64,000 nucleotides of DNA from Candidatus Poribacteria bacterium (GCA_022823085.1 JAJDXV010000098.1:8828-72827), one strand, 5' to 3'. Counted from the stretch's first letter, positions 39,815 to 57,451 are shown. The notes: generated by a model not told the origin, from the sequence alone. Translations and numbers: made by a program.

Positions 39815-41296
39815 TTATTTCTCTCGCAGTCCCTCTTCCCAGCGGAACTGCGTCTCTCGCCTTGCGCCGAGACTCTGAAGTTTTTCAGTTATCCGCATTG
39901 TTTGTTCAATGAGAAGGGCCTCGCATCCGATCGTTTCAACGTTGAGTCGTAACAAGGGTTCGGTGTTCGACTCTCGGAGATTGAACCGCCAACGGGTGGG
40001 TTTCAAACCCTTATGAACACATGAGTGGAAATCTGGGAGAAATCTGACAGATAGACCGTCAACTGGTGTTTCAAGACAGGGGCGGTTCCCCCAAGCGTCT
40101 ATTGTTTTTTGGACGACATCCATAGCATCTCGCATCTGAGAGCGGGTTTCAAAGGAAAAGTTAATCTCACCGGAAACGGGGTATGCTGCTCGGAAGGGGT
40201 CTACAGCTTCAGCGAGGGACTTTCCACTTTCGTTGAGGTATTCAAGGACGAGTAGAAACGGGATCATGCCATTATCGGTATGGAAATTATCTTTGAAGTA
40301 ATAGTGTCCGCTCGCCTCTCCTGCGAACAAGGCCCCGGTTTTTTGCATACGGGTTTTGATAAACGAATGCCCACATCGGTTGAGAATCGGTGTCCCATTT
40401 GCGGTGACAACGGCGTTTTCTACCGCCCATACGGCTCTTGGATCAAAGATGACAGCACCCTTTTCTTGTTCCCGGAGGCATTTTTCAGCGAGCAGTGCCG
40501 TAATATAGCAGCCCTCAACGAACATTCCATTTTCATCGAAGAAAAAACATCTGTCGGCATCAGCATCCCATGCCACTGCTAAATCTGCACCCTTCCGCTT
40601 AACTGCCGCCGTGGTTAATTTACGATTCTCCGGTCTGAGTGGGTCGGGTCTGCCTGCCGGGATCTGGGAGAATGTTCCATCGGGTTGCGTAAATAACCGT
40701 TCACAGATTTCGATGGGTGTCTCGGCTAACAAGCGGTTAGCGACCTGTCCAGCAAGTCCGTTATTGGCGTTGATGACAATGCGCCTGTTAGATAACTCCT
40801 CGGCGTTTACAAACGAGCGAAGGTGTTCCAAATAGACATCTAAAAACGAAACAGATTCAAGGGTGCCGCTACGGTGGGTATTTCCGTTTAGAGATAAAGT
40901 TTTCCTTTCAAGGATATCGCGAAGATCGAGAAGCCCTGTATTCGCGGATAGCGGTGCGGCATGCTGACGGACGAGTTTCATGCCGTTATATGCCGCTGGA
41001 TTGTGAGATGCCGAGATGATAATACCTCCGTCTGTCTGGTAGTGGACTACAGCGAAATAGAGCATATCCGTAGAGATCCGACCGAGATTGAGAACATCAA
41101 CACCAGCGTCAAGGAGTCCCTCGGCGACTTGCTGGTAGAGCTGGAAAGAACTCTCGCGGACATCGTGTCCCAAGGCGACGGTTTTAGGTTGAAAGCGCGC
41201 TGCATACGCACGGGCGATTTGATAGAAATCCTCGGGTTGGAAATCGACACCAAAAATACCCCGAATATCATACGCCTGGAAGATGTCACGGTTCAT
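39815..41296 (-). CDS. Phosphomannomutase/phosphoglucomutase
   Basis: MNRDIFQAYDIRGIFG..., active-site ISASHNPAAYNGMK, ...GEASGHYYF. The start is set at the ATG overlapping the upstream stop (TAATG) rather than the longer ORF. Confidence 0.85.
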   Translation of the reverse strand: MNRDIFQAYDIRGIFGVDFQPEDFYQIARAYAARFQPKTVALGHDVRESSFQLYQQVAEGLLDAGVDVLNLGRISTDMLYFAVVHYQTDGGIIISASHNPAAYNGMKLVRQHAAPLSANTGLLDLRDILERKTLSLNGNTHRSGTLESVSFLDVYLEHLRSFVNAEELSNRRIVINANNGLAGQVANRLLAETPIEICERLFTQPDGTFSQIPAGRPDPLRPENRKLTTAAVKRKGADLAVAWDADADRCFFFDENGMFVEGCYITALLAEKCLREQEKGAVIFDPRAVWAVENAVVTANGTPILNRCGHSFIKTRMQKTGALFAGEASGHYYFKDNFHTDNGMIPFLLVLEYLNESGKSLAEAVDPFRAAYPVSGEINFSFETRSQMRDAMDVVQKTIDAWGNRPCLETPVDGLSVRFLPDFHSCVHKGLKPTRWRFNLRESNTEPLLRLNVETIGCEALLIEQTMRITEKLQSLGARRETQFRWEEGLREK

Positions 41297-41991
41297 TAGA
41301 AAACTCCATTTTGGAAGTGTTGTTGGGCATACGCCAGCCGCGCCGGGACACCAATGTCGATCCAATCCGCATGGGCTTGTAAAGTATAAAGACCCCGAAC
41401 ATTGGGGAAAACATCGCGCTCAATTGAGAAGCTCTCCTGATCTTTCGGAAACGCGTCAGCAATCGTCTTGCTGAAGATGTATACACCACTGTTGATGTAA
41501 CCCGGGCGACAGACGGATTGTTTCTCGCGGAAGGCTTTGACTTTTCCATCGCCATCGGAGACGATCTCGCCGTAGGCGTGAATATCGTCAACACGCACAC
41601 TCAGTAGCACACCTAACATGTCTTGCTGAAACTTCTGTAACATCTCGCGCAGCGAAAAGTTAGCGAGGAGTACGTCGCCGTTGAGAACGAAAAAAGGCGA
41701 TGTGCTGATATGTCTCATGGCATTCTGAATAGCACCACCCGTGCCGAGTCTCTTCTCCTCTTTGGCGTATCGAACACGCACACCGGCGTAGGAAGTACCG
41801 ACGCGTTCATAAATCACATCATGGAGGTGTCCCGATGCGAGGATAACTTCGTCAACATTGGTCTCTTTTAGCAGTTGGATCTGCCAGTCCAACACCGTTT
41901 TACCTGCAATTTGAAGCAGAATTTTGGGGACTGTCTTTGTCAGGTTCCCTAACCGTGTCGCTAGCCCGCCACATAAAATGATCGCTTGCAT
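41296..41991 (-). CDS. Sugar-1-phosphate nucleotidyltransferase (NTP_transferase family)
   Basis: MQAIILCGGLATRLGNLTKTVPKILLQIAGK..., ...GTGGAIQNA.... Confidence 0.8.
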   Translation of the reverse strand: MQAIILCGGLATRLGNLTKTVPKILLQIAGKTVLDWQIQLLKETNVDEVILASGHLHDVIYERVGTSYAGVRVRYAKEEKRLGTGGAIQNAMRHISTSPFFVLNGDVLLANFSLREMLQKFQQDMLGVLLSVRVDDIHAYGEIVSDGDGKVKAFREKQSVCRPGYINSGVYIFSKTIADAFPKDQESFSIERDVFPNVRGLYTLQAHADWIDIGVPARLAYAQQHFQNGVF

Positions 41992-42007
41992 CTGTATTGC
42001 CCCTCTG

Positions 42008-42054
42008 CGGACGGTCGAGGTTTCTTCGACTCTTGAAAAGAACTCGACCGTCCG
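42008..42054 (-). terminator. Strong hairpin (12-bp perfect arms CGGACGGTCGAG/CTCGACCGTCCG) between the MacB-like permease gene and the nucleotidyltransferase gene
   Basis: Read directly. The loop is partly self-complementary and there is no U-tract. Confidence 0.3.
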
Positions 42055-42131
42055 AAAATCAGTGTTACCTATCTGCTAACCTACAACGCAGGCAGTTTTT
42101 AGCCTGATACGCGCGAAACCTCAAAACAACT

Positions 42132-43433
42132 TCACTCTTTCTGGAGTGCTTCAACCGGTGAAAGCGTCGCGGCTTTTATTGCGGGATACATCCCGAACGA
42201 AATGCCGATGATCGCAGAAAATGAGACGGAGATGAGGATCCACTGCCAAGAGATAACTGCAGGCCACTCGGGAACAATTTTGACAATTTTCACGGCAAGC
42301 ATCGCCATCCCTTCACCGGCAAGGCTACCTAATCCAATACCGATGGCACCGCCTACACCACATATTAGCACCGCTTCTATGAGAAACTGAAGTAGAATAT
42401 CCCAACGTTTTGCGCCGACAGCTTTCCGCAGCCCGATTTCGCGCGTTCGCTCACTTACAGCGACGAGCATCATATTCATAATGCCGATTCCCCCAACGAA
42501 AAGTGAAAACCCGGCAATGCTGCCTAAGGTTACTTTTATGATTTTACTGATTTTTTCGAGTTGTGCCATTCCTTTTCGCATCTCAAAGATTCCGATGAAG
42601 TCGTCTTGGTTTCTATGTCTTTTTCTGACAACTGTTTTTACCTCTTCAATTGCCTTGGGAACATCCTCAACCGTCCGTGCATAGACCGAAATATACTCAA
42701 TGTAGTCGTTGCCAGTGAAACGTTTTTGGACGGTTGATATAGGAATAAAGGCAAGGTTGTCGAAACTCCATCCGAACCGAAGACTTCTACCCCTCGGCAT
42801 CAACGTTCCAACGACTCTGAAACGCTCTGTGAATCGTATCCCTTTTTTCGGATGTCGCCGGTTATAAGAGTTGCTGTGCCGTGCGATTTTAATTTCTGCG
42901 CTTAAGGGAGATTTATCACCGAATAAGGCAGTGGCGACCTCGTCTCCCAGTACGCAGATTTTCGTTGCGTTTTCCACATCTTCATCCGTGATAAAACGTC
43001 CTTCCTTAAGGTTCCAATCCATTGCGGTTGTATAATTGGCATCTACACCGTTCCAGCCTGCCCGGGTTTCAGTACCCCCTGGCCCTTGGATGAGTACCCC
43101 TCCCGAACTCCAGACTTGCGGCGTGATAGCCTTCAGAGACAGGCACTCTGCCTCCATTGCCAAGACATCTTCGTATTTCAGGTATTCACTACTACGGTTG
43201 CGGACCCAGCGGTTGTTTACGCGTTTGTACCACATCCGGTACATGATGAACTGATTCGCACCCCCTAGTTTCTGTGCGTCTTGTACCACAATTTCCTTAG
43301 CCCCATCCCCAATAGCGATCATTGCTAATACGGCGGCGACACCAATGATAATGCCAAGCATGGTGAGCAGGGAACGCATTTTGTTTGAGCGCATTGCAGC
43401 GATACCAATTGTGGTGGTTTCAACGATATGCAT
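42132..43433 (-). CDS. MacB/FtsX-type ABC transporter permease (periplasmic MacB_PCD-like domain plus FtsX C-terminal TM bundle)
   Basis: MRSLLTMLGIIIGVAAVLAMIAIGDGA...; C-terminal SERTREIGLRKAVGAKRWDILLQFLIEAV.... Confidence 0.8.
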   Translation of the reverse strand: MHIVETTTIGIAAMRSNKMRSLLTMLGIIIGVAAVLAMIAIGDGAKEIVVQDAQKLGGANQFIMYRMWYKRVNNRWVRNRSSEYLKYEDVLAMEAECLSLKAITPQVWSSGGVLIQGPGGTETRAGWNGVDANYTTAMDWNLKEGRFITDEDVENATKICVLGDEVATALFGDKSPLSAEIKIARHSNSYNRRHPKKGIRFTERFRVVGTLMPRGRSLRFGWSFDNLAFIPISTVQKRFTGNDYIEYISVYARTVEDVPKAIEEVKTVVRKRHRNQDDFIGIFEMRKGMAQLEKISKIIKVTLGSIAGFSLFVGGIGIMNMMLVAVSERTREIGLRKAVGAKRWDILLQFLIEAVLICGVGGAIGIGLGSLAGEGMAMLAVKIVKIVPEWPAVISWQWILISVSFSAIIGISFGMYPAIKAATLSPVEALQKE

Positions 43434-43451
43434 TTCATGCCTCCCAAGATT

Positions 43452-45281
43452 TCAGCTAAAATTTTTTCCGTATTTTTCCGATTGCATTCGATATAATGTT
43501 GCATACCGCCCACCTTTGTTCATCAGTTGATCGTGTGTACCTTCCTCAAGAACTTGCCCTTGGTCAATGACGAGAATTCTGTCTGCCATGCGGACGGTCG
43601 AAAAACGGTGAGAGATTAACAAGGTTGACACACCTTCCGTAAGAATTTTGAAGCGTTGAAAGAGGCCGTATTCAGATTCTGCATCGAGTGCGGCTGTCGG
43701 TTCATCAAGGATAAGGATTTGTGCATCTCTCATAAATGCGCGCGAGATGGCGATTTTCTGCCACTCTCCACCAGATAAATCGACACCGCCTTCAAATTGT
43801 CGACCCAGCTGTGTCTGGTAGCCTTCAGACATCTTTGAAACCACGGCATCCGCTTGGCCTTGCTCGGCAGCCTGAATCACCGCGGTATCGTTGTTAACTT
43901 GTGCTACATTCCCAATACCGATGTTTTCGCCTGCGGTCAAGAAAAAGCGCGAGAAATCCTGAAAGACGGGGGCGATTTTCTGGCGTAAACTATCAAGGCG
44001 ATACCGGTCTAGTGGAACATCGTCAATGAATATCTCACCTTGTGTTGGGTCATAGAAACGACAGAGTAGTTTTACAAGCGTCGTTTTGCCAACACCGTTT
44101 TCTCCAACGATAGCGAGTGTCTCTCCGGCGTTTATTGAAAAGGAGATGTTGTTAAACACGGATTGCTTACGCCCTGGATAAGAGAAAGAGACATTCCTAA
44201 ACTCGACAGATCGGCTAATGTGAGAAAACTCCTGGGGTGCCTCAACTGTTTTAAGTGCAGGCACCAAATCAAAGAAGGACCAGAAAGAACGAAGACCCGC
44301 CGTCGAACCGATAAGTTGTCCCGCCATCAAGGTCAGCATCCAGAAACTCTGTTGCATCGAGGCAACGATGGAAAAATACATTGCCAAGTCCCCTACAGTA
44401 ATTTTCCCCTGGACCGAAATCAGCACGACGTAGGCGTATAAGAGTGTAAGTCCAATCCCATGCAAGAGTGAAAAAAGTACTGTGCTTCTCGTATGCGAAA
44501 TTTTCACGGAACGAACGCGTTTGAAAACCGTGTCAAAAAGTTCGCGGTACTGGTTGATAAAGTAACCACCGAGGTTAAAGAGTTTTATCTCTTTTGCACT
44601 TTTTGTATCAACAAGGAGTCGGTTGTAGTATGCCAATTGCCGCGATTCGGGCATCTGGTCCCAAGTAACGTCAAAGGCATATCTGTAATGGTGATATTCA
44701 ACCCACAGGTGAGGCAGAGCAACCAAGAGCATTGCAACAGGGATGAACGGACTGATTGTGGTCGTTAAGATCAATAGGGAGATTAAGGTAATCCCGTTGC
44801 TAAGCGTAGACGACATAAGCCATAATGTGCTTTCAGGGAGTGTTGTGTTCTCTTGGATAAATCGGAGTTGATTGTAAAATTGACTCTCATCAAAATGCAC
44901 CATCCCTGGTAGTTTCGATGCCTTTTTCATAACCTTTTTATCTATGTCAGCGATAAGCAGATCCGAAAGCGTACTACGGATTGCCTCTGATGCTGGCATC
45001 AGAATGAAGGGAAGGACTTGACAGACGAGGTAGCTAATACCCCAAAACACTGTTATGTTTTCTAATGAACTTCCCGCCTTCAGGAGTGTCACCACGTCAT
45101 TGACAAGTCGGTTGAGCAACGCAGCAGAAATCGCAGGGAGGCCGCTCGAAACAACCAGCAATAGCAGCAGTAAAGTGGTTAGTTTCGCTGAGCTGCGCCA
45201 GGCGACAGGAAGCATTCTCAGGCTTAATTTTGCCGCATCCACAACTTGTGTTGTCCAAGAACGTAATTTTTTAAACATCAT
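43452..45281 (-). CDS. ABC exporter, fused TMD-NBD half-transporter
   Basis: Six-TM N-half. Walker A GENGVGKTT, signature LSGGEWQKIAISRA, Walker B ILILDEPTAALD. Overlaps the upstream paralogue by 11 nt. Confidence 0.85.
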   Translation of the reverse strand: MMFKKLRSWTTQVVDAAKLSLRMLPVAWRSSAKLTTLLLLLLVVSSGLPAISAALLNRLVNDVVTLLKAGSSLENITVFWGISYLVCQVLPFILMPASEAIRSTLSDLLIADIDKKVMKKASKLPGMVHFDESQFYNQLRFIQENTTLPESTLWLMSSTLSNGITLISLLILTTTISPFIPVAMLLVALPHLWVEYHHYRYAFDVTWDQMPESRQLAYYNRLLVDTKSAKEIKLFNLGGYFINQYRELFDTVFKRVRSVKISHTRSTVLFSLLHGIGLTLLYAYVVLISVQGKITVGDLAMYFSIVASMQQSFWMLTLMAGQLIGSTAGLRSFWSFFDLVPALKTVEAPQEFSHISRSVEFRNVSFSYPGRKQSVFNNISFSINAGETLAIVGENGVGKTTLVKLLCRFYDPTQGEIFIDDVPLDRYRLDSLRQKIAPVFQDFSRFFLTAGENIGIGNVAQVNNDTAVIQAAEQGQADAVVSKMSEGYQTQLGRQFEGGVDLSGGEWQKIAISRAFMRDAQILILDEPTAALDAESEYGLFQRFKILTEGVSTLLISHRFSTVRMADRILVIDQGQVLEEGTHDQLMNKGGRYATLYRMQSEKYGKNFS

Positions 45282-47121
45282 AGTGCTCCGCTTGTAGGTT
45301 GTATAGTCTGGCGTATAGGCCCTTACGCTTCATCAGTTCGTCATGTGCGCCTTCCTCGATGAGTTTTCCGCCATCAAGCACGAGAATCCTGTCTGCCATG
45401 CGTACAGTTGACATGCGATGCGAAATCAATATGGTTGTTTTATCTTTCGTTAGTTCTTGAAAACGTGCGTAGATTTCGTATTCGCTTCGCACATCCAAGG
45501 CAGCTGTTGGTTCATCAAGGATAAGGATTTGTGCGTTTCGGATAAGGGCACGGGCGATCGCGATTTTTTGCCATTGTCCACCTGAGAGTTCTGTGCCATC
45601 TTCAAACTGACGAGAGAGTATCGTTTCATATCCATTTGGAAGTTGGTCGATGAAATCTGCACCTGCGTCTTTAGCAGCGGCTTTTATGAATCCCATTTGG
45701 GAAAGTTGCGCGACATTGCCGAGACCAATGTTTTCTTGGACGCTGAGTTGATATTTGAGAAAGTCTTGGTCAACAACGCCCATTTGGTGCCGTAAATTGT
45801 CGAGGTTAAAATAGTGGATAGGGGCATCCTCGAGCCTAATTTCACCATCAGTTGGGTCATACATTCGGGTAATCAATTTAACTAGAGTTGTTTTCCCTTC
45901 TCCATTTTTGCCGACGATTGCCACGGTCTCCTTAGGGTGAATATGGAAGGAAACACCATCCAAAATCTTCCGCTCCGTGTTAGGGTATTGAAAGTGGACC
46001 TCTTTGAAGGCAATACCTTTCTCAAGGGATCGTGGGACACGTTTGGCGAATGCTTTCGGGACCATTTTAATCGCTGGCTTCCTTTTCAGAAAATCGTAAA
46101 GATGCGTCAAAAAGCCGCCGATCTGATGCATGAAAGCAAAATTAGCGAGAGATGTGTTCAGCGTCGTCCACGCGAGAATCGTAGCACCACCATAAGCGGT
46201 AAGTTCACCAACACTTACCTCACCACCGATTGTCTGTCGAAAGAGATAGACATAAAGAGCACACAAGCCCACACCACCTAACAGGGCATACAGTGAAAGC
46301 GAACGAAATTCACGCCATCGGACTGACCACAGCACGCTAAGAATGCGTTTAAAAGTACGCACATATTGTCCTAAAAAGAAATCGTGAAGCCCAAAAATAC
46401 GCACATCTTTGGCTGTTTCGTTAAAAAGAAACTGGTTCCTGAAATAGTCGAGTTTTCTGGCTTCTGGTGCCTGAAATTGAATCGCGATTCCAGCAAGATT
46501 GGCGTAACGATATTGCATCAAGGCGTAGGGTAACGCGCATAAAATTAAAAGAATTGGTGCTAACGGGTGAAACAACGAAAGAAACAGAGCAGTTGACAAT
46601 AATTCCCAACAATCTCGACCGGCTTGAAAAGCGTAGATAACTAAGTCAGCACTACTTCGCTCAATATGCCGGACCTGTTGGAGTTGGTCATGGAGTTTTG
46701 GATCTTCAATGTGGGCAAGGTCGGGATGTCGATTCGAAGCTTCCATAACAAGAAGTGTCAAATGACGGCGCATTCTGTCGCCAAGGATGCTTTTAACCGC
46801 AAGGAAAATCGGTCCTGTTGTTTGCAAGACGACGGTGGCAAGTGCTAACACCATCAAGACCGGAGCTACCTCACCGAAGTCCCCCTCGTTTGAACCAGAG
46901 ATAGCGATGACCATGTCAATCACATCTCGGCTCAAGTAGAGAATCAGCACGGGTAGCAAACCTTGGATGAACATTAAGAAAAAAATAAGTAGGGTCTCAA
47001 ATTTTCCGGCGGCCCATATCATTCCGAAAGACCGGAAAATCGCTTTGTAAACCGGACCCCATTCTTTTACAGGTGGATTCCACTGTTCAAGTTTGATATC
47101 AGATGCTTTGTGTTGTTTCAT
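45271..47121 (-). CDS. ABC exporter, fused TMD-NBD half-transporter (likely heterodimer partner)
   Basis: Walker A GKNGEGKTT, signature LSGGQWQKIAIARA, Walker B ILILDEPTAALD. Confidence 0.85.
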   Translation of the reverse strand: MKQHKASDIKLEQWNPPVKEWGPVYKAIFRSFGMIWAAGKFETLLIFFLMFIQGLLPVLILYLSRDVIDMVIAISGSNEGDFGEVAPVLMVLALATVVLQTTGPIFLAVKSILGDRMRRHLTLLVMEASNRHPDLAHIEDPKLHDQLQQVRHIERSSADLVIYAFQAGRDCWELLSTALFLSLFHPLAPILLILCALPYALMQYRYANLAGIAIQFQAPEARKLDYFRNQFLFNETAKDVRIFGLHDFFLGQYVRTFKRILSVLWSVRWREFRSLSLYALLGGVGLCALYVYLFRQTIGGEVSVGELTAYGGATILAWTTLNTSLANFAFMHQIGGFLTHLYDFLKRKPAIKMVPKAFAKRVPRSLEKGIAFKEVHFQYPNTERKILDGVSFHIHPKETVAIVGKNGEGKTTLVKLITRMYDPTDGEIRLEDAPIHYFNLDNLRHQMGVVDQDFLKYQLSVQENIGLGNVAQLSQMGFIKAAAKDAGADFIDQLPNGYETILSRQFEDGTELSGGQWQKIAIARALIRNAQILILDEPTAALDVRSEYEIYARFQELTKDKTTILISHRMSTVRMADRILVLDGGKLIEEGAHDELMKRKGLYARLYNLQAEHYDV

Positions 47122-47139
47122 TTTTCTACAACCTCGCGT

Positions 47140-48132: not shown

Positions 48133-48138
48133 TTCCTC

Positions 48139-49215: not shown

Positions 49216-49346
49216 AGCAAATGTCCTTTTATAGTGAATTCCAAAAATAAGTTTACATTTTAAAGTTCCCAAATTCCCCCCTGATAAGGGGGGTTAGGGG
49301 GTTCTTTTGTTTGGCAGTGTGCAATTAATTATGAGATCCACTATAA

Positions 49347-50003: not shown

Positions 50004-50094
50004 TGTAGGATTGTCCTTTTTTAGAATTGCGTCAGTCCCCCGGATTGTATCTATCTAAAGTAACAAATAGAATCCCTTTCCGAATTGACCAAGT

Positions 50095-52038
50095 TCACTT
50101 GGTTGTGTATCGCCTCAACCAGAGCTCAAGCGATAATGTATTAACCACATTCCCAATTTTTTCCCAGTCCCCGAGCATCCATCGAGAAAGGATCCCTCGC
50201 AAGCGCTCCCGGTTGACGTATCCTCTTTTAACCACCTCAACCGCATCTTGGTCTAACTGCGTTATCAGTTCGGGTAATGCAAGCTTTAACCCCTTCATGG
50301 CATGTCTTCCCAGATTCGGTTGGCTAAGGCGGTTTCGGATCATATCGGGTAGAATACCTTTCATTCCGTTGCGGATGAGGAGTTTCCTTACGATTCTTCC
50401 TTTTGCGTCGACAGTGATTCTATGGTGCATTGGGACACCCATAACATATTCGACAAGCCGTTGGTCAAAGAAAGGCTGACGGATTTCGATATTCAGTGGG
50501 CAGTAGACGACTTGAACCGCCTGACATGAGTTACTTTCACGTAGATACCGATATTCAAGCCGCAGCGATTTTTTATGACAATCTCTATCAGGAATTAAAC
50601 GTCGTATACGCTGGGTAACAGCTTGTTCCCGAGCAAAGCGTTCGTCGAGCCATTCAGGAATCATTGGACCCGTATCTTCTACACCGATATGATTCCAGAA
50701 TTCCAGCGGCTTTCGGATAATTGCGCCCACGAAGGGTTGCATGAAATATGGGATGTGCGGTTTAATCCCAAACTCTGATAATGCATACAGATAAGACATG
50801 TTAGGTGCACGTGCCCATTTCGACAATTCGCCTCTGAGTTTTCTGAACTTTCCATCGCGGAGCAAATCTGCGATATTTAGCGCACTTCCTTGCATAATCT
50901 CGTCGCCCCCGATTCCAGAAAACAGAACAGTTGCTCCAAAATCGTTGGCGGCTTCAGGGGTTAGGTAGTGTTCATGACAAGCGAGATAAACGCCGTAGGG
51001 TTCATCGGGACACGGGTAAGATTCCGTACTTTGCATGAAAAGCCGATCATCCGTCGGGATCCTCCGATTGATGAGATTATACTTCTGTATAACTGATTGC
51101 TGATAGCTTGCTTCGTCTGCTTCTCTAAAGACGTCAAACCCTTTTGATAGCGTAAGCAATTCATTGTTCGGCATCTCGCCGCTTTGATAGATGTCAGCCG
51201 CCATTGAAACAATAGACGAGGAATCTAATCCGCCGCTCAATTCAGAAGCGATGGGTGCTTTATTACGCATCCTGCATTTTACAGCTTCACGAAATGCTTC
51301 CCTGAAGCCGTCAGCATAATCGTCTGGATCGGAATACTGTATTTCTTTTATCCCTGCCGTGGACCAGTATTCAACTGGTTCGGAAATGCCACGCTGATCT
51401 ACCCAAATATAGCAGGCAGGAGGTAGACGCTTAACACCCTTAATTGCTGTGTTTGGCGAATTCAGCGATCCAGTCACCGGATTTAATAGAAAATCTGCCA
51501 TATATTCATTATTGAGTTCCCTTGATATTCGCGGATGCTCATAAAATTGCGCGATTGTCGAGCCAAATATAAGGGTCCGATCAACAAGCGTATAATATAA
51601 AGGTCTCATACCTGCATAATCCCGGGCACAAAACAGGCGTTGTTGTTTTTTGTCCCAGATTGCAAAAGCATAGTCACCGATAATACGTTTTACACAGTCA
51701 GCACCCCACCGTTTATAGGCAGCAAGGATTAACTCAACATCCGTGACAATACGTTCTTTCGCATTAATACCGCAATGCTTGATTAACGCTTCTCGATTAT
51801 CAACGCGTCCGTCAGAAACGATACATAAGGAACCGGATTCGTCTGAAAAGGGCTGATGCTCCCATTGCGATTCCTCTGTTGTATGGAATTGACACTGTCC
51901 CATGCCTATTTGCCTGTCAACGAAATTACTTATTTTCTTGCCGCCTCGCCGAACGCGCGTGACAACCATCATCTTTTGTAATAATTCTTGGTTAACAGGC
52001 GAAGCATCTAAATTAAATAGTCCTGCAAAACCACCCAT
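50095..52038 (-). CDS. Lasso peptide cyclase (asparagine synthetase B-like, C protein)
   Basis: MGGFAGLF... N-terminus without the Cys2 nucleophile. PP-loop SELSGGLDSSSIV. 647 aa, directly downstream of B1/B2. Confidence 0.85.
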   Translation of the reverse strand: MGGFAGLFNLDASPVNQELLQKMMVVTRVRRGGKKISNFVDRQIGMGQCQFHTTEESQWEHQPFSDESGSLCIVSDGRVDNREALIKHCGINAKERIVTDVELILAAYKRWGADCVKRIIGDYAFAIWDKKQQRLFCARDYAGMRPLYYTLVDRTLIFGSTIAQFYEHPRISRELNNEYMADFLLNPVTGSLNSPNTAIKGVKRLPPACYIWVDQRGISEPVEYWSTAGIKEIQYSDPDDYADGFREAFREAVKCRMRNKAPIASELSGGLDSSSIVSMAADIYQSGEMPNNELLTLSKGFDVFREADEASYQQSVIQKYNLINRRIPTDDRLFMQSTESYPCPDEPYGVYLACHEHYLTPEAANDFGATVLFSGIGGDEIMQGSALNIADLLRDGKFRKLRGELSKWARAPNMSYLYALSEFGIKPHIPYFMQPFVGAIIRKPLEFWNHIGVEDTGPMIPEWLDERFAREQAVTQRIRRLIPDRDCHKKSLRLEYRYLRESNSCQAVQVVYCPLNIEIRQPFFDQRLVEYVMGVPMHHRITVDAKGRIVRKLLIRNGMKGILPDMIRNRLSQPNLGRHAMKGLKLALPELITQLDQDAVEVVKRGYVNRERLRGILSRWMLGDWEKIGNVVNTLSLELWLRRYTTK

Positions 52039-52058
52039 ACTTTTAACCCTCCTCGAAC

Positions 52059-52472
52059 CTATTTCACAGAAACCTTCACATATCTTTCTTTAACAATATC
52101 TCCGTCGTTGACAACTCGCCCGTTACATTCAACCCAGGCATGAAAAGTAAGTGGTGGATACTTGCTACATCCCAAACAGAGCTGAGCAGGTATACCTTCG
52201 CGCCGCAGGAGAGAATAGACAACCAGTGATCTTTCCAGACATTCAATTCGACGTCTGATATACAGACGAAATGATTTTTTTGCAATTTTGACGGTTTTGG
52301 AAATCTTTTCCCAATCAACCTCCGCTTCCTGACTTCCCGTTGATTTTTGCCATTTGAGTATGGTTCTGACAACTTGATGAAACCCAAAAGACCACAAACC
52401 AAAGTCAATCAAAAATATCAGGACGTATGCACGAAGAAATGTTGAGCTGTCTCTTATAATCTGTTTAGCCAT
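52059..52472 (-). CDS. Lasso peptide leader peptidase (B2, transglutaminase-like Cys protease)
   Basis: CLERSLVVYSLLRREGIPAQLCLG ... FHAWVECNGRVVND (Cys/His/Asp triad pattern). Confidence 0.85.
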   Translation of the reverse strand: MAKQIIRDSSTFLRAYVLIFLIDFGLWSFGFHQVVRTILKWQKSTGSQEAEVDWEKISKTVKIAKKSFRLYIRRRIECLERSLVVYSLLRREGIPAQLCLGCSKYPPLTFHAWVECNGRVVNDGDIVKERYVKVSVK

Positions 52473-52746
52473 CGGTTATCTCCAGTAAGTTGTTCTCCTG
52501 AAGCGCATTAAACAACGCTATCAAATCCTCTCGGAGCGTTTCCTCAGGGACATCATACTCTGTCTTGAGTTGCTCAAGAATCGGGCCAAGTTTATTTTCT
52601 TCTTCAAGCAAGGAAAAAACGTCTGTTCCGACACTACCGACGCCATAAAAATCGCCCGTTTCAAAATTGAGCAACACCAGATCGTCATCTACGATCGCTT
52701 TTTCAACGTGTTCTGGTATTGTGAAAATCGATGTATCTGTAATCAT
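52465..52746 (-). CDS. Lasso peptide B1 protein (stand-alone PqqD-family RRE)
   Basis: 93 aa, ...AIVDDDLVLLNFETGDFYGVGSVGTDVFSLLEEENKLGPILEQLKTEYDVPEETLREDLIALFNALQENNLL. Overlaps both neighbouring genes. Confidence 0.85.
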   Translation of the reverse strand: MITDTSIFTIPEHVEKAIVDDDLVLLNFETGDFYGVGSVGTDVFSLLEEENKLGPILEQLKTEYDVPEETLREDLIALFNALQENNLLEITDG

Positions 52747-54371
52747 TGTATTACCTCTATATTGTTTGGGATTGGTTTAGTCAACCGAGAAGAACTTTGC
52801 ACAACAATTCCTTCTCGCAGCAGGTTCCGAAGTGATGCCTTTATTTCCGCTTCAGATCCAACGTCGGCTAACGCCGAGATAAGCGTTTGCGTTTTGATAG
52901 CATCAGAAGCATCCAAATACTGAATAATCGCTTTTTCAGCGTCGTCAATTTCGTAAGTCCGTGCCCACACAGGATCTTGCATCTCTATTGCATGAGCCTT
53001 TACATGATAAAAAAGCGTCCCGAGGGACAAGATATTTTCCGCGCAAAGTTCTTCGGTAACGTATCCTGAACTATAGGGGAGAATTATTTTTGAGTAAAAC
53101 TCATAGTTTTGCTTGGTGTATCGAGGTCTCCTCGTGATCAGAGAAGTAATAGCACCTTCATTTTCTCGGTCGTATTGTGCGTTCATGAGGGCGTATTTCA
53201 AACCAAATCGGCTCATCTGGTTTCCATCCGTCGAATGCTTTGAGGTCTTCAAACAACCATCAACAATAGCGCACAATTTCTGTTCAAAGCGACGACGACT
53301 AAATTTTGACAGGACAGTCCGACGTGCTGCATCTCCTATCTCTTCTCTCTCTTCTCTTGACGCAATGAGTCTCGCAGAGTAATGAAGCACCGAGTGTAAA
53401 TCCACGCGGATACCCCAGTCGGTTACAAAGGTATCGACCTGAAATCCAGTTTTTCCGTGCTCAATGGTATCCTTCAAACCACCCCAACTTGTACCTATGA
53501 CAGGCGTGCCACAACTCATTGCTTCAACTTGGGTTAAACCAAAGTTCTCATCGTGATGTATCGTCAGATTCATGAATACATCGGCAATATTGTAAAGAAT
53601 CGGAAGCGCCTCTTGGTCGATATATGGAAGCATTCTGACCCGTTCTTTTACGTCACGGTTCTCGTCCAATAATTTGGAAAAGAGTACATCCAACGCATTG
53701 GGACCCGATTCAAATTCCTCAAATTTAACATCATCAATAGGTCCGACGATTAGCAGTCGGACATTCGGATACAGCTTTACTAATTTTTTGAAGACGGACA
53801 AGATGGAATGGACATTTTTTTCAGAAGTTATACGACCCACATACAAAAACACGACATCATCAGGATCAAAGCCGAAGTGTTTACGATATTCTTCCTGCTG
53901 CTCGGTAGAGAGAGGGCTAAGCATCTGCTCATCAGCAAAGAAGGGTAACATCGTTTCCGTCGCCGCACATTGGTCCGACATGAGGTGATAAATTTCCCGA
54001 TCCGCCGCACATGAAAACGCAATAGCATCGCCGGGCTGAAAATGAAAGAACGTACGTCTAAAATTGTAGGCACCCCGAGGGAACTCACCTAGCGGGAGGT
54101 ACACGACAGGTTGATCCAACGCAAGTTCCTCGCGGAAAACAAAAAATTCCGGCAGATCCCGATTGACGATGAGATCGCATTCCTTTAAAAAGGCTTTTCC
54201 GATCTCCTCACGCTGTTTAACATCCAGAAATGGATAATATACAGGCAAACGTCTCACCGTGTAATGTTTACTGAGGATCTTCTCAATTTCCGAGAAGACG
54301 ACTCTTAGACTTGAACCTGGAGATTCAGTTATCGTGTGGCGTGTTAGTCCAATTATTGGTTTAGTATCCAT
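52743..54371 (-). CDS. GT4-family glycosyltransferase with a C-terminal RRE/wHTH-like extension
   Basis: ENFGLTQVEAMSCGTPVIGTSWGGLKDTIEHGKTGF. The C-terminal ~90 aa, ...WARTYEIDDAEKAIIQYLDASDAIKTQTLISALADVGSEAEIKASLRNLLREGIVV, has the beta-beta-helix pattern of PqqD-like domains. ATG at 54371 lies behind GAAGGAAG. Confidence 0.65.
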   Translation of the reverse strand: MDTKPIIGLTRHTITESPGSSLRVVFSEIEKILSKHYTVRRLPVYYPFLDVKQREEIGKAFLKECDLIVNRDLPEFFVFREELALDQPVVYLPLGEFPRGAYNFRRTFFHFQPGDAIAFSCAADREIYHLMSDQCAATETMLPFFADEQMLSPLSTEQQEEYRKHFGFDPDDVVFLYVGRITSEKNVHSILSVFKKLVKLYPNVRLLIVGPIDDVKFEEFESGPNALDVLFSKLLDENRDVKERVRMLPYIDQEALPILYNIADVFMNLTIHHDENFGLTQVEAMSCGTPVIGTSWGGLKDTIEHGKTGFQVDTFVTDWGIRVDLHSVLHYSARLIASREEREEIGDAARRTVLSKFSRRRFEQKLCAIVDGCLKTSKHSTDGNQMSRFGLKYALMNAQYDRENEGAITSLITRRPRYTKQNYEFYSKIILPYSSGYVTEELCAENILSLGTLFYHVKAHAIEMQDPVWARTYEIDDAEKAIIQYLDASDAIKTQTLISALADVGSEAEIKASLRNLLREGIVVQSSSRLTKPIPNNIEVIQ

Positions 54372-54523
54372 CTTGTCTTCCTTCAAGTGTATAAACAGTA
54401 GTCGGGCAGCCTACGGCTTTCCCAATATCCAATAAAATTTGGATTGCTTGATGTCCGAGTTTTCAATGATAGAACTCTATCGGACATTCGTAAAAAAAAC
54501 GTGGGTGTATCGAAATAGCCTTT

Positions 54524-54670
54524 CTAACAATTGGTGTTTGCATGGGTTCGCCCACCACTGGAATCATATACAGTAGGAGTAGAACCTTTAACAAGGGTTC
54601 TGGCATTGCCATACTTGACAACCCGTGGTGCCGTGTAGGCTTTCTTCTTGGATTTCAACACCTTACGCAT
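54524..54670 (-). CDS. Lasso precursor peptide A
   Basis: GGAGG RBS. MRKVLKSKKKAYTAPRVVKYGNARTLVK/GSTPTVYDSSGGRTHANTNC. The leader fits YxxPxLxxxG; the predicted core has Gly1 and Asp8. Confidence 0.8.
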   Translation of the reverse strand: MRKVLKSKKKAYTAPRVVKYGNARTLVKGSTPTVYDSSGGRTHANTNC

Positions 54671-54812
54671 TGTTGTTATACCTCCTGGAATATATCAATT
54701 CAAATTAACGCTCACTTGACTTAAGCACTTAGCACATAAGTATCACTTTCAGAAACTGATTTGCCCTTCTGATTGTTCTTAGGCAAACACGGAACTACAA
54801 AATTTACTACAA

Positions 54813-55028
54813 TCAAGCCAAAATGTCGTGGACAACATGAACTTGAACACCAGTAAGACGGAAGTCCCGACCTTGGAAACGGTAGGTTAGCTTCTCGTAG
54901 TCAATGGAAAATAAATGCAACATTTTGGCGTGTAAATCGTGGACATACACAATATCTTCCACGGCGTTATATCCAAGTTCATCAGTTTTGCCGTGACTCA
55001 CACCGCCTTTGATGCCCCCGCCGGCTAA
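54813..55028 (-). pseudogene. 3' fragment of a DUF1501-type (sulfatase-like) gene
   Basis: [61 protein letters not shown]... is the characteristic C-terminal ~70 aa of DUF1501 proteins. It is preceded by a stop and has no N-terminal part. Confidence 0.6.
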
Positions 55029-55151
55029 CTATATTGAGAATCCACGGATGTCTTGTTTCTCATCAAATCAAATATTTAAGCGACGCTCCGGGCACAATGT
55101 TGGAGTGCCTTTTCTGTTTGACAACAATCAAACAGAAAAGGCATCTCTTAT

Positions 55152-55298
55152 GTTAACAGTTCGGTGGGCAATACTTTCTACCGCCACCTGTCTCATACTG
55201 ACAAGTGCTACTCCCTTTAACTAGAATAGTGGCATTGCCATATCTAACTAACCGGGGTGCTTCGTAGGTTTTCTTTTCAGGCTTCAGCATCTTACGCA
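55152..55298 (-). CDS. Lasso precursor peptide B
   Basis: AAAGGAGGTG RBS. MRKMLKPEKKTYEAPRLVRYGNATILVK/GSSTCQYETGGGRKYCPPNC. Confidence 0.8.
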
Positions 55299-55370
55299 TC
55301 GTTTTCACCTCCTTTCATATATTAATTTAGACACTCGACTGAAAAGTCGCATTCCACTCGTTACTGAGTG

Positions 55371-55511
55371 TTAACAGTTATGGTTTCTACGAGTACATGA
55401 GCCATCATAGAGTGGGCTTCCACCACTTTTTACGAGCACCGTGGCGTTGCCGTAACTGACTAACCGGGGTGCTTCGTAGGTTTTCTTTTCAGGCTTCAGC
55501 ATCTTACGCAT
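55371..55511 (-). CDS. Lasso precursor peptide C
   Basis: Identical RBS and leader DNA to B. MRKMLKPEKKTYEAPRLVSYGNATVLVK/SGGSPLYDGSCTRRNHNC. Confidence 0.75.
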   Translation of the reverse strand: MRKMLKPEKKTYEAPRLVSYGNATVLVKSGGSPLYDGSCTRRNHNC

Positions 55512-55581
55512 CGTTTTCACCTCCTTTCATATATTAATTTAGATATGCGACGAAAAGGTCGCAAACCACTTATTAGAAACA

Positions 55582-55709
55582 TTAGGTGTTATTCCGAGCA
55601 CTTGATTCATACTGAACAATGCCAGAGCCTTTGATTAACGCGGTAGCATTGCCGTAGCTAACTGAGATACTTGATAGTCTTTCTTTGTTGACTTTAACAT
55701 CTTACGCAT
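55582..55709 (-). pseudogene. Decayed lasso precursor copy D
   Basis: No RBS. MRKMLKSTKKDYQVSQL, then a 4-nt deletion relative to its siblings. The shifted frame still reads YGNATALIK/GSGIVQYESSARNNT*. Confidence 0.65.
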
Positions 55710-55776
55710 TTTTTCTTTTTTCAAACTTTAATTTGCAAACATGACTGAAAAATCGAAAAACACTCGCTACCGAGTA

Positions 55777-55917
55777 TTAGTAATTAGAGTTTTTGCGAGT
55801 ACCTCCGCAATCAAGATTTTTGGTTCCACCATTTTTTATGAGCACCATGGCATTGCCGTAGCTGACCAACTGAGGTGTTTCGTAGGTTTTCTTTCCAGAT
55901 ATGAACATCTTACGCAT
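55777..55917 (-). CDS. Lasso precursor peptide E
   Basis: AAAGGA RBS. MRKMFISGKKTYETPQLVSYGNAMVLIK/NGGTKNLDCGGTRKNSNY. Confidence 0.7.
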   Translation of the reverse strand: MRKMFISGKKTYETPQLVSYGNAMVLIKNGGTKNLDCGGTRKNSNY

Positions 55918-56015
55918 TGTTTCTCACATCCTTTCATATCTAATTTAAAACTTGTTTGCGGTGTTAGGATCTGCGATCTACCTATTACAAACATTACTGA
56001 CACGGCTTGCTTTCT

Positions 56016-56053
56016 ATACTTAAGGACACAATTTCAGATTGAAAAGGATGCAG
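56016..56053 (-). promoter_or_regulatory. Conserved promoter-like motif, copy 7
   Basis: Minus strand CTGCATCCTTTTCAATCTGAAATTGTGTCCTTAAGTAT, ~100 nt upstream of precursor E. Confidence 0.5.
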
Positions 56054-56090
56054 AAGCAGATACCACCTACAACCCAAAGACCTTTTATTC

Positions 56091-56798
56091 CTATACGCTC
56101 CTCAAAGCTTCAAAATCGGCGTTAAAGAAGTTGCTGGATTCATAGGAGAGTGGGTGCCCAACGGATTTCACTTCTTGAATCTGTATTTCTATACCATAAT
56201 CTATCATCCGCTGGAGGGCATTTGTGAGCTGATATTTTCCATTTCGGAGGTGTCCTGCCTGAATCAACTCATCCAGACACGCAAAGAGCAATTTGCTTTC
56301 TCGAATGAAATAACATCCTGCAATCACTAAGTCTGTCCGTCTCGGTTTATGAATTAAGCATCCAACGATGCCATCTCTGAGTTCGACTAAACCGTAAGGT
56401 TTCTCATCAACGATACGCCGGACAGCAATTGTTGAGCACTGACTTTGCGTAAACGCTGTCCAGTTCAGATTTACGCCTGCTTCCGCCTCGACGATGAGCA
56501 GCGGTTCCTCAGAGATATGATTACTGGCTAACGAAATCGAGTGCCCTAATCCTTTTTCTTCCGTCTGTTCAATGAAAGAAGCCGTCATCTCACTATAGTT
56601 AGCCTCCATATAGGCTTGAATCGGGTTGGTTGGATAATCGGTGATAAATATAAACTCAGACACCGGCAGTTTGCACAAGGGTTGAATCAAATGTGTAAGA
56701 GTCGGGCGCCCCTTGTATTGAGGTAGCGGGTCAGAGATCCGATCTGTATGTGGTACGAACGGCGATGTGTTTTCTGTAAATGGAAAGATTACTTTCAT
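56091..56798 (-). CDS. Sugar-phosphate nucleotidyltransferase-like protein
   Basis: ...KGRPTLTHLIQPL...EKGLGHSISLA...EKPYGLVEL.DG.V..LIHKP...VIAGCYF...GKYQLTNALQRMIDYG... (NTP_transferase pattern). Confidence 0.55.
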   Translation of the reverse strand: MKVIFPFTENTSPFVPHTDRISDPLPQYKGRPTLTHLIQPLCKLPVSEFIFITDYPTNPIQAYMEANYSEMTASFIEQTEEKGLGHSISLASNHISEEPLLIVEAEAGVNLNWTAFTQSQCSTIAVRRIVDEKPYGLVELRDGIVGCLIHKPRRTDLVIAGCYFIRESKLLFACLDELIQAGHLRNGKYQLTNALQRMIDYGIEIQIQEVKSVGHPLSYESSNFFNADFEALRSV

Positions 56799-56821
56799 AG
56801 TTCACCTCATCTAGGTGCGGC

Positions 56822-57451
56822 TTACGCGCCTCCACGACACTTAAGAGTTTCATACTGAAGATAAGGTTGCAGCTTATCGCGGAGTTTCCGGTGTGCTTGA
56901 TATAAGTGGGTTTTAATGGTTCCTTCGGCCTTGCTCAAGCGCGAGGCAATCTCTTTTATCTTGAGTCCATCTTGGTAGCGGAGATTAAAAACGCGACGTT
57001 GGATGGGGGATAATCGACGCACGGCCACGCTCAAGAGGTGGTTGAATTCCTCCTTTTCAAGGATTTCATCGGGCGATGCGTGCGTCCCATCAATTTGAAG
57101 CCCATCCGCTACGGTCTCGGGTAACTCTGCGACTCCAAAAACGATTTCTCGCTTTTGTCTGCGGAGGAAATCAAGGCTACAATTGATAGCAATTCGGTGG
57201 AGCCAACTGTAAAATGCGGCACCTCTTCTAAAATTCGGTAGTGCCTGCCAGGCCTTAAGGAATACTTCTTGACAGAGATCTTCTGCTGTTTCAGAGTGGC
57301 GAACCCGCTTGTAAATCAAATTATAGATTCTTTGTTGGTATCTACACACAATTGGATTAAACGCCTGTGTATCGCCATTCTGGGTCCGCTGAATGAGCTC
57401 GGTGTCACTTAGAGCGTTGAACGAGTCACGCGTCGTTAATACCTCTTTCAT
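56822..57451 (-). CDS. ECF-type sigma-70 family factor
   Basis: From ATG 57451 (AAGGAG RBS): ...FNPIVCRYQQRIYNLIYKRVRHSETAEDLCQEVFLKAWQAL... (region 2) and ...LRYQDGLKIKEIASRLSKAEGTIKTHLYQAHRKLR (region 4). Confidence 0.85.
   Translation of the reverse strand: MKEVLTTRDSFNALSDTELIQRTQNGDTQAFNPIVCRYQQRIYNLIYKRVRHSETAEDLCQEVFLKAWQALPNFRRGAAFYSWLHRIAINCSLDFLRRQKREIVFGVAELPETVADGLQIDGTHASPDEILEKEEFNHLLSVAVRRLSPIQRRVFNLRYQDGLKIKEIASRLSKAEGTIKTHLYQAHRKLRDKLQPYLQYETLKCRGGA

Follow-up and report, generated by a model that had tools for sequence, protein, structure and literature searches.

Direct glycosylation of a lasso peptide has already been published for the davasins of Streptomyces davaonensis, which are O-glycosylated on Ser by the GT2-type, cluster-encoded enzyme IgtG (PMC11912497). 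An earlier note on the DNA studied here called such glycosylation at best rare, which is correct, but with the davasins it is no longer unprecedented. IgtG, in which a GT2 enzyme is fused to a polysaccharide deacetylase, is membrane-associated and works on the mature lasso peptide in an iterative manner (PMC11912497). In pseudomycoidin from Bacillus pseudomycoides, made with a kinase and the nucleotidyltransferase PsmN, hexoses are carried on the phosphate of the C-terminal Ser, and no glycosyltransferase is encoded (PMC11912497). Furthermore, fusions of an RRE with a GT2 domain (PF00535) have been reported from mining with RRE-Finder and AlphaFold (PMC12710340).

The window (the whole stretch of 64,000 nucleotides analysed) comes from a Candidatus Poribacteria bacterium, and its positions 39815-57451 make up a span of 17.6 kb in which all listed genes lie on the minus strand with short gaps. 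Poribacteria are a sponge-symbiont phylum, in which a lasso cyclase was found in 5 of 176 genomes and the C-terminal tail of the GT4 enzyme described below in 2 of 176. The earlier note had named the genes of this span, and each was recovered in place on the minus strand by Pfam or NCBIfam matches. Judged by gene content and order, the span is not one unit; it is an older sugar-nucleotide operon with an inserted lasso island. The island contained four intact precursors, the lasso genes B1, B2 and C, two glycosyltransferase genes (a GT4 with a winged-helix ending and a GT1/28-like one), a PRMT-like methyltransferase, a redoxin whose frame includes a TGA, and genes for two ABC half-transporters and a MacB-type permease.

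The lasso enzymes were encoded on the minus strand by B1 (52746..52465; Pfam PqqD, PF05402, and NCBIfam lasso_PqqD), B2 (52472..52059; Pfam Transglut_core3, PF13471) and the cyclase C (52038..50095; Pfam Asn_synthase, PF00733, with GATase_7). The split B (B1 and B2) and an Asn-synthetase-like C in overlapping or adjacent genes are as expected of a lasso biosynthetic gene cluster. The precursors, also on the minus strand, were translated as the open reading frames D (55917..55777), at the upstream end of the island, C (55520..55371), B (55308..55153) and A (54670..54524), whose core GSTPTVYDSSGGRTHANTNC was identical in the metagenome contig L001; a decayed precursor (55724..55635) lay in the array D-C-B. 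By tblastn, this array was paralogous to precursor A. The cores of A and B began with GSTPT and GSST, in agreement with the earlier reading. The leaders carried YxxPxL/VxxYGNA, as in YxxP-type lasso precursors, and D/E at core position 8, corresponding to an 8-residue ring, was found in the four window precursors and in eight from relatives, one of which (L003b) had it one residue further out. At leader position -2 the window precursors had Val or Ile instead of the usual Thr; their cores opened with G, G, S and N, those of some relatives with E, T or A. The combination of Thr at -2 with Gly/Ala/Ser/Cys at core position 1 is thus not kept; it is common, not universal, and membership is not excluded. 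A same-genus Poribacteria chromosome (L006) carried the order sigma, B2, C, ABC, ABC, B1 and GT4-tail gene, closely followed downstream by a canonical precursor.

The first glycosyltransferase gene (52743..54371, minus strand) encoded a GT4-type, retaining GT-B enzyme matching Pfam Glycos_transf_1 (PF00534; E 5e-32, 111 bits). The EX7E (E275-x7-E283) and GRITSEKN (GR..EK) motifs were invariant across the family. The AF2 model, which was built on 9 sequences only, had a GT-B fold with a pLDDT of 87, and the best Foldseek matches were BshA, MshA and PimB' (E 1e-15 to 1e-16). The GT-B fold, the EX7E motif and the G-R...K loop are those of retaining glycosyltransferases, and from its intact motifs and modelled fold the enzyme is probably catalytically competent. 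The best NCBIfam match was TIGR04157 (glyco_rSAM_CFB; E 8e-28, residues 154-369 only); membership of that family was rejected at 97.6 bits, far under its cut-off of 400. The GT4 stop codon overlapped the B1 start (ATGA), an arrangement of translational coupling. Relatives at 29-43% identity were found in one other lasso cluster from Poribacteria as well as next to lanthipeptide synthetases of class I and class III/IV, with LanKC adjoining the GT4-tail gene at L009, L011, L013, L023, L026, L032 and L104-106, and LanB or LanC at L007, L086, L087 and L089.

The C-terminal extension of GT4, about 170 residues long, had no Pfam match. AF2 predicted the elements E447-474, H477-489, H494-500 and H507-519 with a pLDDT of about 90 in the tail, so that the protein is predicted to end in a winged-helix domain of a beta-sheet and three helices, a topology that fits an RRE. 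The 'RRE-like tail' of the earlier note holds at this level of predicted fold, but homology of the tail to PqqD was not detected. Searched against Pfam, PF05402 included, it gave no match at E 10; BLASTP against PqqD and B1 returned no alignment, and hhalign against the B1 and PqqD profiles gave probabilities of 0.2-1.3%. Its only profile matches, all sub-threshold, were to winged-helix families, TrmB, GntR, BlaI and MarR among them. An RRE assignment of the tail is therefore unproven.

The second glycosyltransferase gene (48139..49218, minus strand) encoded a GT1/GT28-type, inverting GT-B enzyme (PF04101, GT28_C; 33.8 bits, cut-off 22). The RGRGFGH and RGSFGT..E motifs were invariant, and the PDB profile matches were GT1 glycosyltransferases, the oleandomycin enzyme among them, and MurG. 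A PF04101-type C-terminal domain together with an N-terminal Gly-rich loop is characteristic of GT1/GT28. L001 held a 94% identical copy, L003 decayed pieces, and L166, a marine lasso cluster, a 37% homologue together with the end of a cyclase, a redoxin, an ABC gene and a precursor whose core is GSGTTQFDDGCTRADC. The redoxin gene of the island (49347..50003, minus strand) matched AhpC-TSA, Redoxin and T4_deiodinase when its TGA was read as U; the product has a thioredoxin fold and would carry T-U-P-Y-C if TGA is selenocysteine. The 'Sec-redoxin' of the earlier note is borne out as to the in-frame TGA, and the genome has tRNA-Sec and selB; the selenocysteine reading itself is possible only. 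The L166 redoxin has Cys at this site (CPFC), and that of L005 was called as one 217-aa protein with no stop. Further along the minus strand came the PRMT-like SAM methyltransferase (47140..48132; PRMT_C, PRMT5_C, PrmA), conserved in L001, L003 and L005, the two ABC half-transporters (43452..47121; ABC_tran) and the MacB/FtsX-type permease (42132..43433; Pfam), with which the insertion ends. The genome holds about 15 MacB paralogues, and a MacB follows the exporters in L004 and L191 too.

The claim of two glycosyltransferases was well founded: both exist and are conserved as part of the lasso gene set, as judged from the B1 coupling, their place in the block common to L001 (about 91% DNA identity), the relatives in RiPP clusters and the recurrence in L166. 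Since both are conserved in the lasso set and have relatives in RiPP clusters, a glycosylated lasso peptide is a reasonable prediction, to which the two island glycosyltransferases only, and not the flanking sugar genes, point; we infer such glycosylation from sequence. Overall, the best explanation, which we hold to be probable, is that an older operon was split by a lasso island whose glycosyltransferases glycosylate the peptide. Alternatively, these enzymes might act on an envelope component for self-protection or on another small molecule, with the tail serving as a DNA-binding or oligomerisation winged helix. Distant GT4-tail members from Acidobacteria and a deltaproteobacterium (about 30% identity) retain the tail among polysaccharide-type neighbours (epimerase, GT2 and PMT-like genes), and therefore the tail need not be a leader-binding domain. 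The weak tail matches to DNA-binding families and the structural neighbours BshA and MshA, which are small-molecule GT4 enzymes, are in line with such a role. Moreover, one or both glycosyltransferases were absent from the sister lasso clusters L003, L004 and L005, which indicates that glycosylation is dispensable for the lasso scaffold. However, the closer GT4 relatives recur in three RiPP classes across several phyla, which is hard to square with an envelope function, and GT4 is translationally coupled to B1; a non-peptide target is thus considered unlikely.

The genes on both sides of the island were compared with five relatives, four from the same genus and one from the same family (G119, G133, G167, G085 and G145). 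On the minus strand of the window, the flanks consist of the ECF sigma factor (56822..57451; Pfam Sigma70_r2, r4_2, ECF), an NTP-transferase-like gene (NTP-like, 56091..56798), a second nucleotidyltransferase (NTP2, 41991..41296; NTP_transferase, mannose-1-P guanylyltransferase/HddC-like) and PMM/PGM (41296..39815), the last two assigned by Pfam and NCBIfam and translationally coupled through a TAATG overlap. IS3 fragments lie beyond the sigma gene. The sigma, NTP-like and NTP2 genes were contiguous in all five relatives with no lasso genes between, the gap from NTP-like to NTP2 being 40-90 nt, and PMM followed NTP2 in the four that could be scored for it, the G145 contig ending about 1.2 kb past NTP2. 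The sigma orthologues (56-60% identity) head this operon in the five relatives, and the NTP2/PMM orthologues (73-78%) directly follow NTP-like. Synteny continues into the window's GT4 (581 aa) and GT-like (469 aa) pair (35096..38266, minus strand; Pfam): two such genes follow in three of the five relatives, with orthologues at 61-81% identity downstream of PMM in L178, L179 and L180. Gene order in the relatives establishes an ancestral, genus-conserved operon of ECF sigma, degenerate NTP-like, NTP2, PMM and two GT4 genes. Because NTP-like and NTP2 are contiguous and lasso-free in relatives, it likewise identifies 55917..42132, about 14 kb from precursor D to MacB in the same orientation, as an insertion between them. 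By the same comparison, the island is younger than the four genes for sigma, NTP-like, NTP2 and PMM.

The earlier note had seen sugar genes packed around the lasso genes under a local ECF sigma factor. On such a model, the whole of 39815-57451 is one co-evolved cluster regulated by this sigma factor, in which NTP-like, NTP2 and PMM are dedicated to supplying NDP-sugars to the two peptide glycosyltransferases. The shared strand and short gaps accord with this, NTP2 and PMM could make GDP-hexose, and L006 also has an ECF sigma gene directly upstream of its lasso genes. However, the lasso-free operon of the relatives already largely refutes it: neither packing by design nor a dedicated regulatory role of the sigma factor is supported, and the sigma gene belongs to the ancestral operon and is one of about 50 ECF sigma genes in the genome. 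Furthermore, the homology with L001 (blastn) covers only 55051..43471, and the four flank genes lie outside it, as do MacB, precursors D, C and B and the decayed copy; that array was also absent between NTP-like and NTP2 in the relatives examined. The two claimed nucleotidyltransferase genes both exist, but the first is degenerate. NTP-like scored only 23.4 bits for PF00483 and matched the NCBIfam sugar-1-P nucleotidyltransferase superfamily (TIGR03992, E 1e-20); its GxGTR(L) position reads FTENTSPF, and its C-terminal LbH part is missing. Order-level homologues keep the GxGTRL signature and the LbH part, and the signature is absent from the genus-level orthologues too. By these features, NTP-like is a truncated, motif-degenerate paralogue of sugar-1-P nucleotidyltransferases. 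PMM has no other close copy in the genome.

Regulatory signals bear on the same question. A promoter-like motif, ATGCACCCTTTT..N..AAGATTGTGTC, was located at 57497..57525 (minus strand), about 45 nt upstream of the sigma start, and was the sole block that the window and the five relatives shared when their sequences upstream of sigma were aligned. It occurs 7 times in the window (0.54 expected) and 11 times in the 5.2-Mb genome. Two copies (38317-38343 and 38406-38432) lie ahead of the GT4/GT-like pair, others precede further non-lasso operons of the window, and none of the seven falls within the island (42132-55917). The motif of the sigma gene belongs to the ancestral operon, and control of the island by this sigma could only be read-through from the sigma's own promoter, which is possible, as the island lies downstream of it. 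In addition, a strong hairpin (12-bp stem; 42008..42054, minus strand) stands at the downstream island junction, in the gap from MacB to NTP2. Taken together, a single sigma-governed cluster with a dedicated sugar supply appears improbable. A second hairpin from the terminator/hairpin scan (17-bp stem; 55105..55144) lies immediately past precursor B and some 50 nt from the L001 homology boundary at 55051. Next to this boundary was a 79-codon 3' remnant of a DUF1501 gene (54813..55049, minus strand; tblastn, 86% over L001 residues 137-215), which is full-length in L001, upstream of precursor A. That the island is recently transferred and decaying or silent, without product in this organism, is very doubtful, since the decayed precursor, the DUF1501 remnant, the IS3 fragments and the visibly decayed GT1/28-like gene of L003 stand against 11 of 11 island enzyme and transporter genes with intact reading frames, whose proteins are 86-95% identical to those of L001 with catalytic motifs kept.

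For the favoured split operon with a glycosylating island, the following route is proposed. B1, B2 and C would form lasso peptides with an 8-residue ring. The retaining GT4 would transfer a sugar from the housekeeping NDP-sugar pool to Ser/Thr (or Cys) of the peptide, probably acting on the leader-bearing precursor held by the C-terminal winged-helix domain. The inverting GT1/28-like enzyme might add a second sugar or modify another site; methylation and redox tailoring would come next, and the ABC pair would export the product. GDP-mannose-type donors may incidentally come from the flanking NTP2 and PMM, which were not recruited for the lasso purpose.

Compared with described systems, the locus shares with pseudomycoidin a lasso peptide setting, with hexoses on the peptide there, and a nearby 'nucleotidyltransferase'. 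However, the PF00483-type genes here belong to the older flanking operon, one of them being degenerate, and no PsmK-type (HPr-kinase-like) kinase was found by Pfam among the genes of 39815-57451. With glycosylated lanthipeptides (NAI-112 with AplG; cacaoidin with Cao8, Cao16 and Cao24) the link is that relatives of the window GT4 adjoin class I and class III/IV synthetases. One enzyme of the cacaoidin cluster, Cao24, is a GT4 of unproven role, likened to the present enzyme by description and not by sequence; for none of AplG, Cao8, Cao16 and Cao24 has a C-terminal winged helix been described. TIGR04157, the NCBIfam family closest to the catalytic half of GT4, is tied by its name to radical-SAM systems. 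The RRE-GT2 fusions (PMC12710340) embody the same concept of a RiPP-cluster glycosyltransferase with its own peptide-recognition winged helix, but the catalytic domain here is PF00534 (GT4) and the tail lacks a PqqD/PF05402 signal. An IgtG-type GT2 was absent from the island, and no PF00535-led protein was found by Pfam among the genes of 39815-57451, where PF00535 appeared only as a sub-threshold secondary match on the flanking NTP2 (20.6 bits, cut-off 23.3). Unlike the davasin system of an actinomycete, which relies on IgtG, this locus of Poribacteria combines a soluble GT4 bearing a winged-helix tail with a GT1/28-type glycosyltransferase.

The gene inventory of the earlier note was correct, as Pfam and NCBIfam searches recovered every gene it had named, at the same positions and all on the minus strand. 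The ECF sigma factor gene (57451..56822; Sigma70_r2, r4_2 and ECF) is followed by the NTP-like gene, which encodes a truncated, degenerate nucleotidyltransferase paralogue (56798..56091; weak PF00483). Then come precursors D, C, B and A (55917..55777, 55520..55371, 55308..55153 and 54670..54524) with a decayed precursor copy (55724..55635), the glycosyltransferase gene GT4 (54371..52743; Glycos_transf_1), and the lasso genes B1, B2 and C (52746..50095; PqqD, Transglut_core3 and Asn_synthase), the GT4 stop and the B1 start overlapping as ATGA. Further downstream are a redoxin gene with an in-frame TGA (50003..49347; AhpC/TSA if TGA is read as U), a GT1/28-like glycosyltransferase (49218..48139; PF04101), a PRMT-like methyltransferase (48132..47140; PRMT_C, PRMT5_C and PrmA), two ABC half-transporters (47121..43452; ABC_tran) and a MacB/FtsX permease (43433..42132; MacB_PCD and FtsX). 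The intact nucleotidyltransferase NTP2 (41991..41296; NTP_transferase) and a PMM/PGM gene (41296..39815; PGM_PMM I-IV) close the series. Cores A and B begin with GSTPT and GSST, respectively, as had been claimed.

The proposal that all of these form one purpose-built, sigma-governed glycosylation cluster was wrong for the flanks and is plausible for the two internal glycosyltransferases. When 176 genomes of the phylum were searched with the NTP-like protein, seven, all of the same genus or family, gave orthologues with 53-60% identity. In five of the seven, a stretch of about 3 kb contains the ECF sigma (56-60%), NTP-like (55-60%) and NTP2 (76-78%) genes arranged head to tail, and the gap between NTP-like and NTP2 is only 40-90 nt. 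The PMM gene (73-76%) directly follows NTP2 in four of the five, and the contig of the fifth, G145, stops about 1.2 kb past NTP2. Furthermore, orthologues of the downstream genes GT4_581 (36521..38266; 76-81%) and GT_469 (35096..36505; 61-70%) follow in three of the five. None of these five relatives possessed lasso genes at the NTP-like/NTP2 site. Because the three genes are contiguous and lasso-free in the relatives, 55917..42132 of the window is an insertion of about 14 kb, in the same orientation, within an older operon. PMM, NTP2 and MacB were rejected as cluster-specific genes on synteny and paralogue counts: in this genome there are about 50 ECF sigma genes, about 15 MacB paralogues, a 74% paralogue of NTP2 and just one close PMM. 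Thus, same-strand, tailoring-looking genes with short gaps on both sides of this RiPP cluster belong to an older operon that the cluster has split, a methodological warning that the borders of RiPP clusters require synteny checks.

The window and the metagenome contig L001 were about 91% identical in DNA, over 55051..43471 only. In the window this block begins with the DUF1501 stub, followed by precursor A, GT4, B1, B2, C, redoxin, GT1/28-like, methyltransferase, ABC and ABC. The stub, a 3' remnant of DUF1501 (79 codons, 54813-55049), lies between precursors B and A and is 86% identical to the L001 gene, which is full-length upstream of precursor A in that contig. Since the gene is a stub here and complete in L001, recombination that cut it joined the B-D precursor array to an L001-like block. 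Moreover, among the 176 genomes only 5 have the cyclase and only 2 the GT4 tail, the second tail match being G154, labelled as the same genus. A mobile island is consistent with this rarity, with the DUF1501 stub and with the IS3 fragments present beyond the sigma gene.

Order-level homologues keep a GxGTR signature and a C-terminal domain, and the NTP-like protein has lost both. Its gene (56091-56798) begins 23 nt after the sigma gene, and the intact ORF is conserved across the genus. The slot directly after an ECF sigma gene usually encodes an anti-sigma factor. NTP-like could be a pseudo-enzyme that acts in sensing or regulation.

Upstream of the sigma gene, ATGCACCCTTTT-N-AAGATTGTGTC was the sole block that aligned between the window and the five relatives. 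The pattern GCACC-N15-20-GTGTC occurred 7 times in the window, all on the minus strand, against 0.54 expected, and a stricter form had only 11 copies in the entire 5.2-Mb genome. The fuller form, GCACC(C/T)TTT-N-AAAATTGTGTC-(C/A)TTAATT, had 7 copies in the window, likewise on the minus strand (20163-20189, 26147-26173, 31049-31075, 38317-38343, 38406-38432, 39514-39540 and 57497-57523). These copies stand ahead of two ECF sigma genes, the one described above and another that is fused to BNR repeats, and also of the GT4_581/GT_469 pair, of a further GT4 pair similar to it and of an ABC ATPase. The window scan found no copy inside the island. The set resembles a local regulon, possibly of ECF type, that belongs to the ancestral region, and transcription from the sigma motif could reach the island only by reading through NTP-like. 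There are hairpins after precursors D and B and a 12-bp stem after MacB; the scan for sigma-70 promoters and terminators performed no better than on shuffled sequences. In addition, the two pairs are alike two-gene cassettes (16242-19752 and 35096-38266), each preceded by the motif and composed of a 581-583-aa GT4 and then a 469-554-aa protein. The BNR fusion is a 986-aa protein (27941-30901) with an ECF sigma domain and BNR/sortilin-type repeats.

The tailoring genes differed among more distant lasso clusters of the same cyclase clade. L003 (cyclase 63% identical) retained the redoxin and methyltransferase; its GT1/28-like gene was present as decayed pieces only, at 12694-12978 and 13421-13534 between those two genes. 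L005 (43%) had the redoxin, two unknown genes and the methyltransferase, and the two genes at the GT1/28 position (422 and 351 aa) gave no glycosyltransferase signal. A 37% homologue of the GT1/28-like enzyme was found on the TARA scaffold L166, where it adjoins the 3' end of a cyclase gene and a precursor (core GSGTTQFDDGCTRADC), with a Cys-type redoxin and an ABC gene beside it. An L166 ORF that starts downstream of this homologue (4590-4913) has the motif VVDDSVNSGSQM, by eye resembling a phosphoribosyltransferase signature. L004 (59%) was without the redoxin, the methyltransferase and these glycosyltransferases, and owned a different 582-aa GT4 and MacB behind the exporters. L191 (54%, partial), whose upstream part lies past the contig end, likewise had a different 575-aa GT4 and MacB there. 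The GT4 genes of L004 had only the catalytic domain in common with the window GT4. The L004 and L191 enzymes (15965-17713 and 7709-9436; 575-582 aa) were 80% identical to each other, and their genes stand between the ABC exporters and MacB, immediately behind the former. By eye, their C-terminus (ITAAELE...RFRYHLLWLLKYDWL) also looks winged-helix-like, and they may represent a second, independent GT4-plus-winged-helix design.

The in-frame TGA of the redoxin gene (49347-50003) lies within T-U-P-Y-C, and the genome has both tRNA-Sec and selB. The L166 homologue (815-1462) has Cys at the TGA site (CPFC), and that of L005 (12511-13164) was called as a single 217-aa product without a stop. The hairpin 3' of the UGA was no more stable than shuffled sequences. 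Redoxin presence follows Cys in the cores, as the L004 cores have no Cys and L004 has no redoxin. L001, L003 and L005 all conserve the PRMT-like methyltransferase (47140-48132). Most cores have a Gly-Gly-(x)-Arg/Lys motif in their tails (SGGR, GGGRK, GGTRK and GGGK), similar to Gly/Arg-rich sites known for protein arginine methyltransferases.

The AF2 model of GT4 reached a pLDDT of 87 with a 9-sequence alignment, against 32 with a 2-sequence alignment. Residues 1-375 are predicted to form a GT-B core, the closest solved structures being BshA, MshA and PimB', and the top 50 Foldseek matches of the whole model were GT4 cores only. The catalytic motifs are intact, EX7E and GR..EK being invariant across the family. 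For the C-terminal tail (the last ~170 residues), a word-based search matched the L001 copy alone, and a full HMMER scan across 1.8 billion representatives returned 13 proteins, most of them 520-545 aa long and built in the same way. Of the claim that this tail is RRE-like, only a predicted winged-helix domain could be confirmed. The modelled end, with strands at 447-474 and then helices at 477-489, 494-500 and 507-519, fits a winged helix or RRE, but no PqqD signal was detected in the tail by Pfam, BLASTP or hhalign. The hhalign comparisons of the tail with B1 used profiles of 2, 34, 5 and 8 sequences and gave no homology. Against Pfam and PDB sequences nothing was significant, with only generic winged-helix families below threshold. 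P0124 (158 aa) joins the ~30 N-terminal residues typical of GT4 family members to the tail domain alone, and appears to be a deletion derivative retaining only the tail.

Genomic context is stronger evidence on GT4 than the tail fold. In L006, of the same genus, a lasso locus has the order sigma, B2, C, ABC, ABC, B1, GT4-tail and precursor. Homologues with 34-37% identity (L009, L011, L013, L032 and L104-106) or 29-32% identity (L023 and L026) accompany class III/IV lanthipeptide synthetases (RamC_N, Pkinase and LANC_like), and those of L007, L086, L087 and L089 have a class I LanB or LanC context. These RiPP loci belong to Poribacteria, Chloroflexi, Gorillibacterium and Myxococcaceae. Relatives at about 30% in Acidobacteria and a deltaproteobacterium lie amid epimerase, GT2, PMT-like and carbamoyltransferase genes. 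Because the tail also occurs in such non-RiPP contexts, it characterises the family and does not prove leader binding. The literature searched gave no description of a GT4-plus-winged-helix family common to lasso and lanthipeptide clusters.

From these features, GT4 would glycosylate the precursor, probably with the leader still attached, and the GT1/28-like enzyme would add a second sugar or modify another site. Donor sugars would come from general metabolism, and NTP2 and PMM may help to supply them simply because they happen to lie nearby. A joint reading, tentative and on balance rather doubtful, would make GT4 with its C-terminal winged helix an undescribed family, independent of RiPP class, that serves lasso peptides and class I and III/IV lanthipeptides in Poribacteria, Chloroflexi, Myxococcota and Bacillota. 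Its tail would bind the leader as a non-PqqD module, and the peptide would thus be glycosylated before the leader is removed. The window products would then be lasso peptides with two different sugars, from a retaining GT4 and an inverting GT1/28-type enzyme, with Arg methylation and selenoprotein-redoxin tailoring. If the inferred roles hold, a GT4 family in three RiPP classes with a putative peptide-docking domain would be a portable peptide-glycosylation tool and would offer genome mining a new entry point. Almost nothing is known of the natural products of Poribacteria, a phylum of uncultivated symbionts of sponges. To our knowledge, RiPPs are rarely glycosylated, and very few of the glycosyltransferases that act on them have been characterised.

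Several known systems can be compared with this locus. The cacaoidin cluster includes a GT4 of unknown role (PMC8068269). Structure-based mining reported RRE fusions to GT2 (PF00535) and not to GT4 (PMC12710340). In pseudomycoidin, the hexoses sit on phosphate and are attached without a glycosyltransferase (PMC11912497). Direct O-glycosylation of lasso peptides was published in 2025 for the davasins, where the GT2-deacetylase fusion IgtG acts on the mature peptide (PMC11912497).
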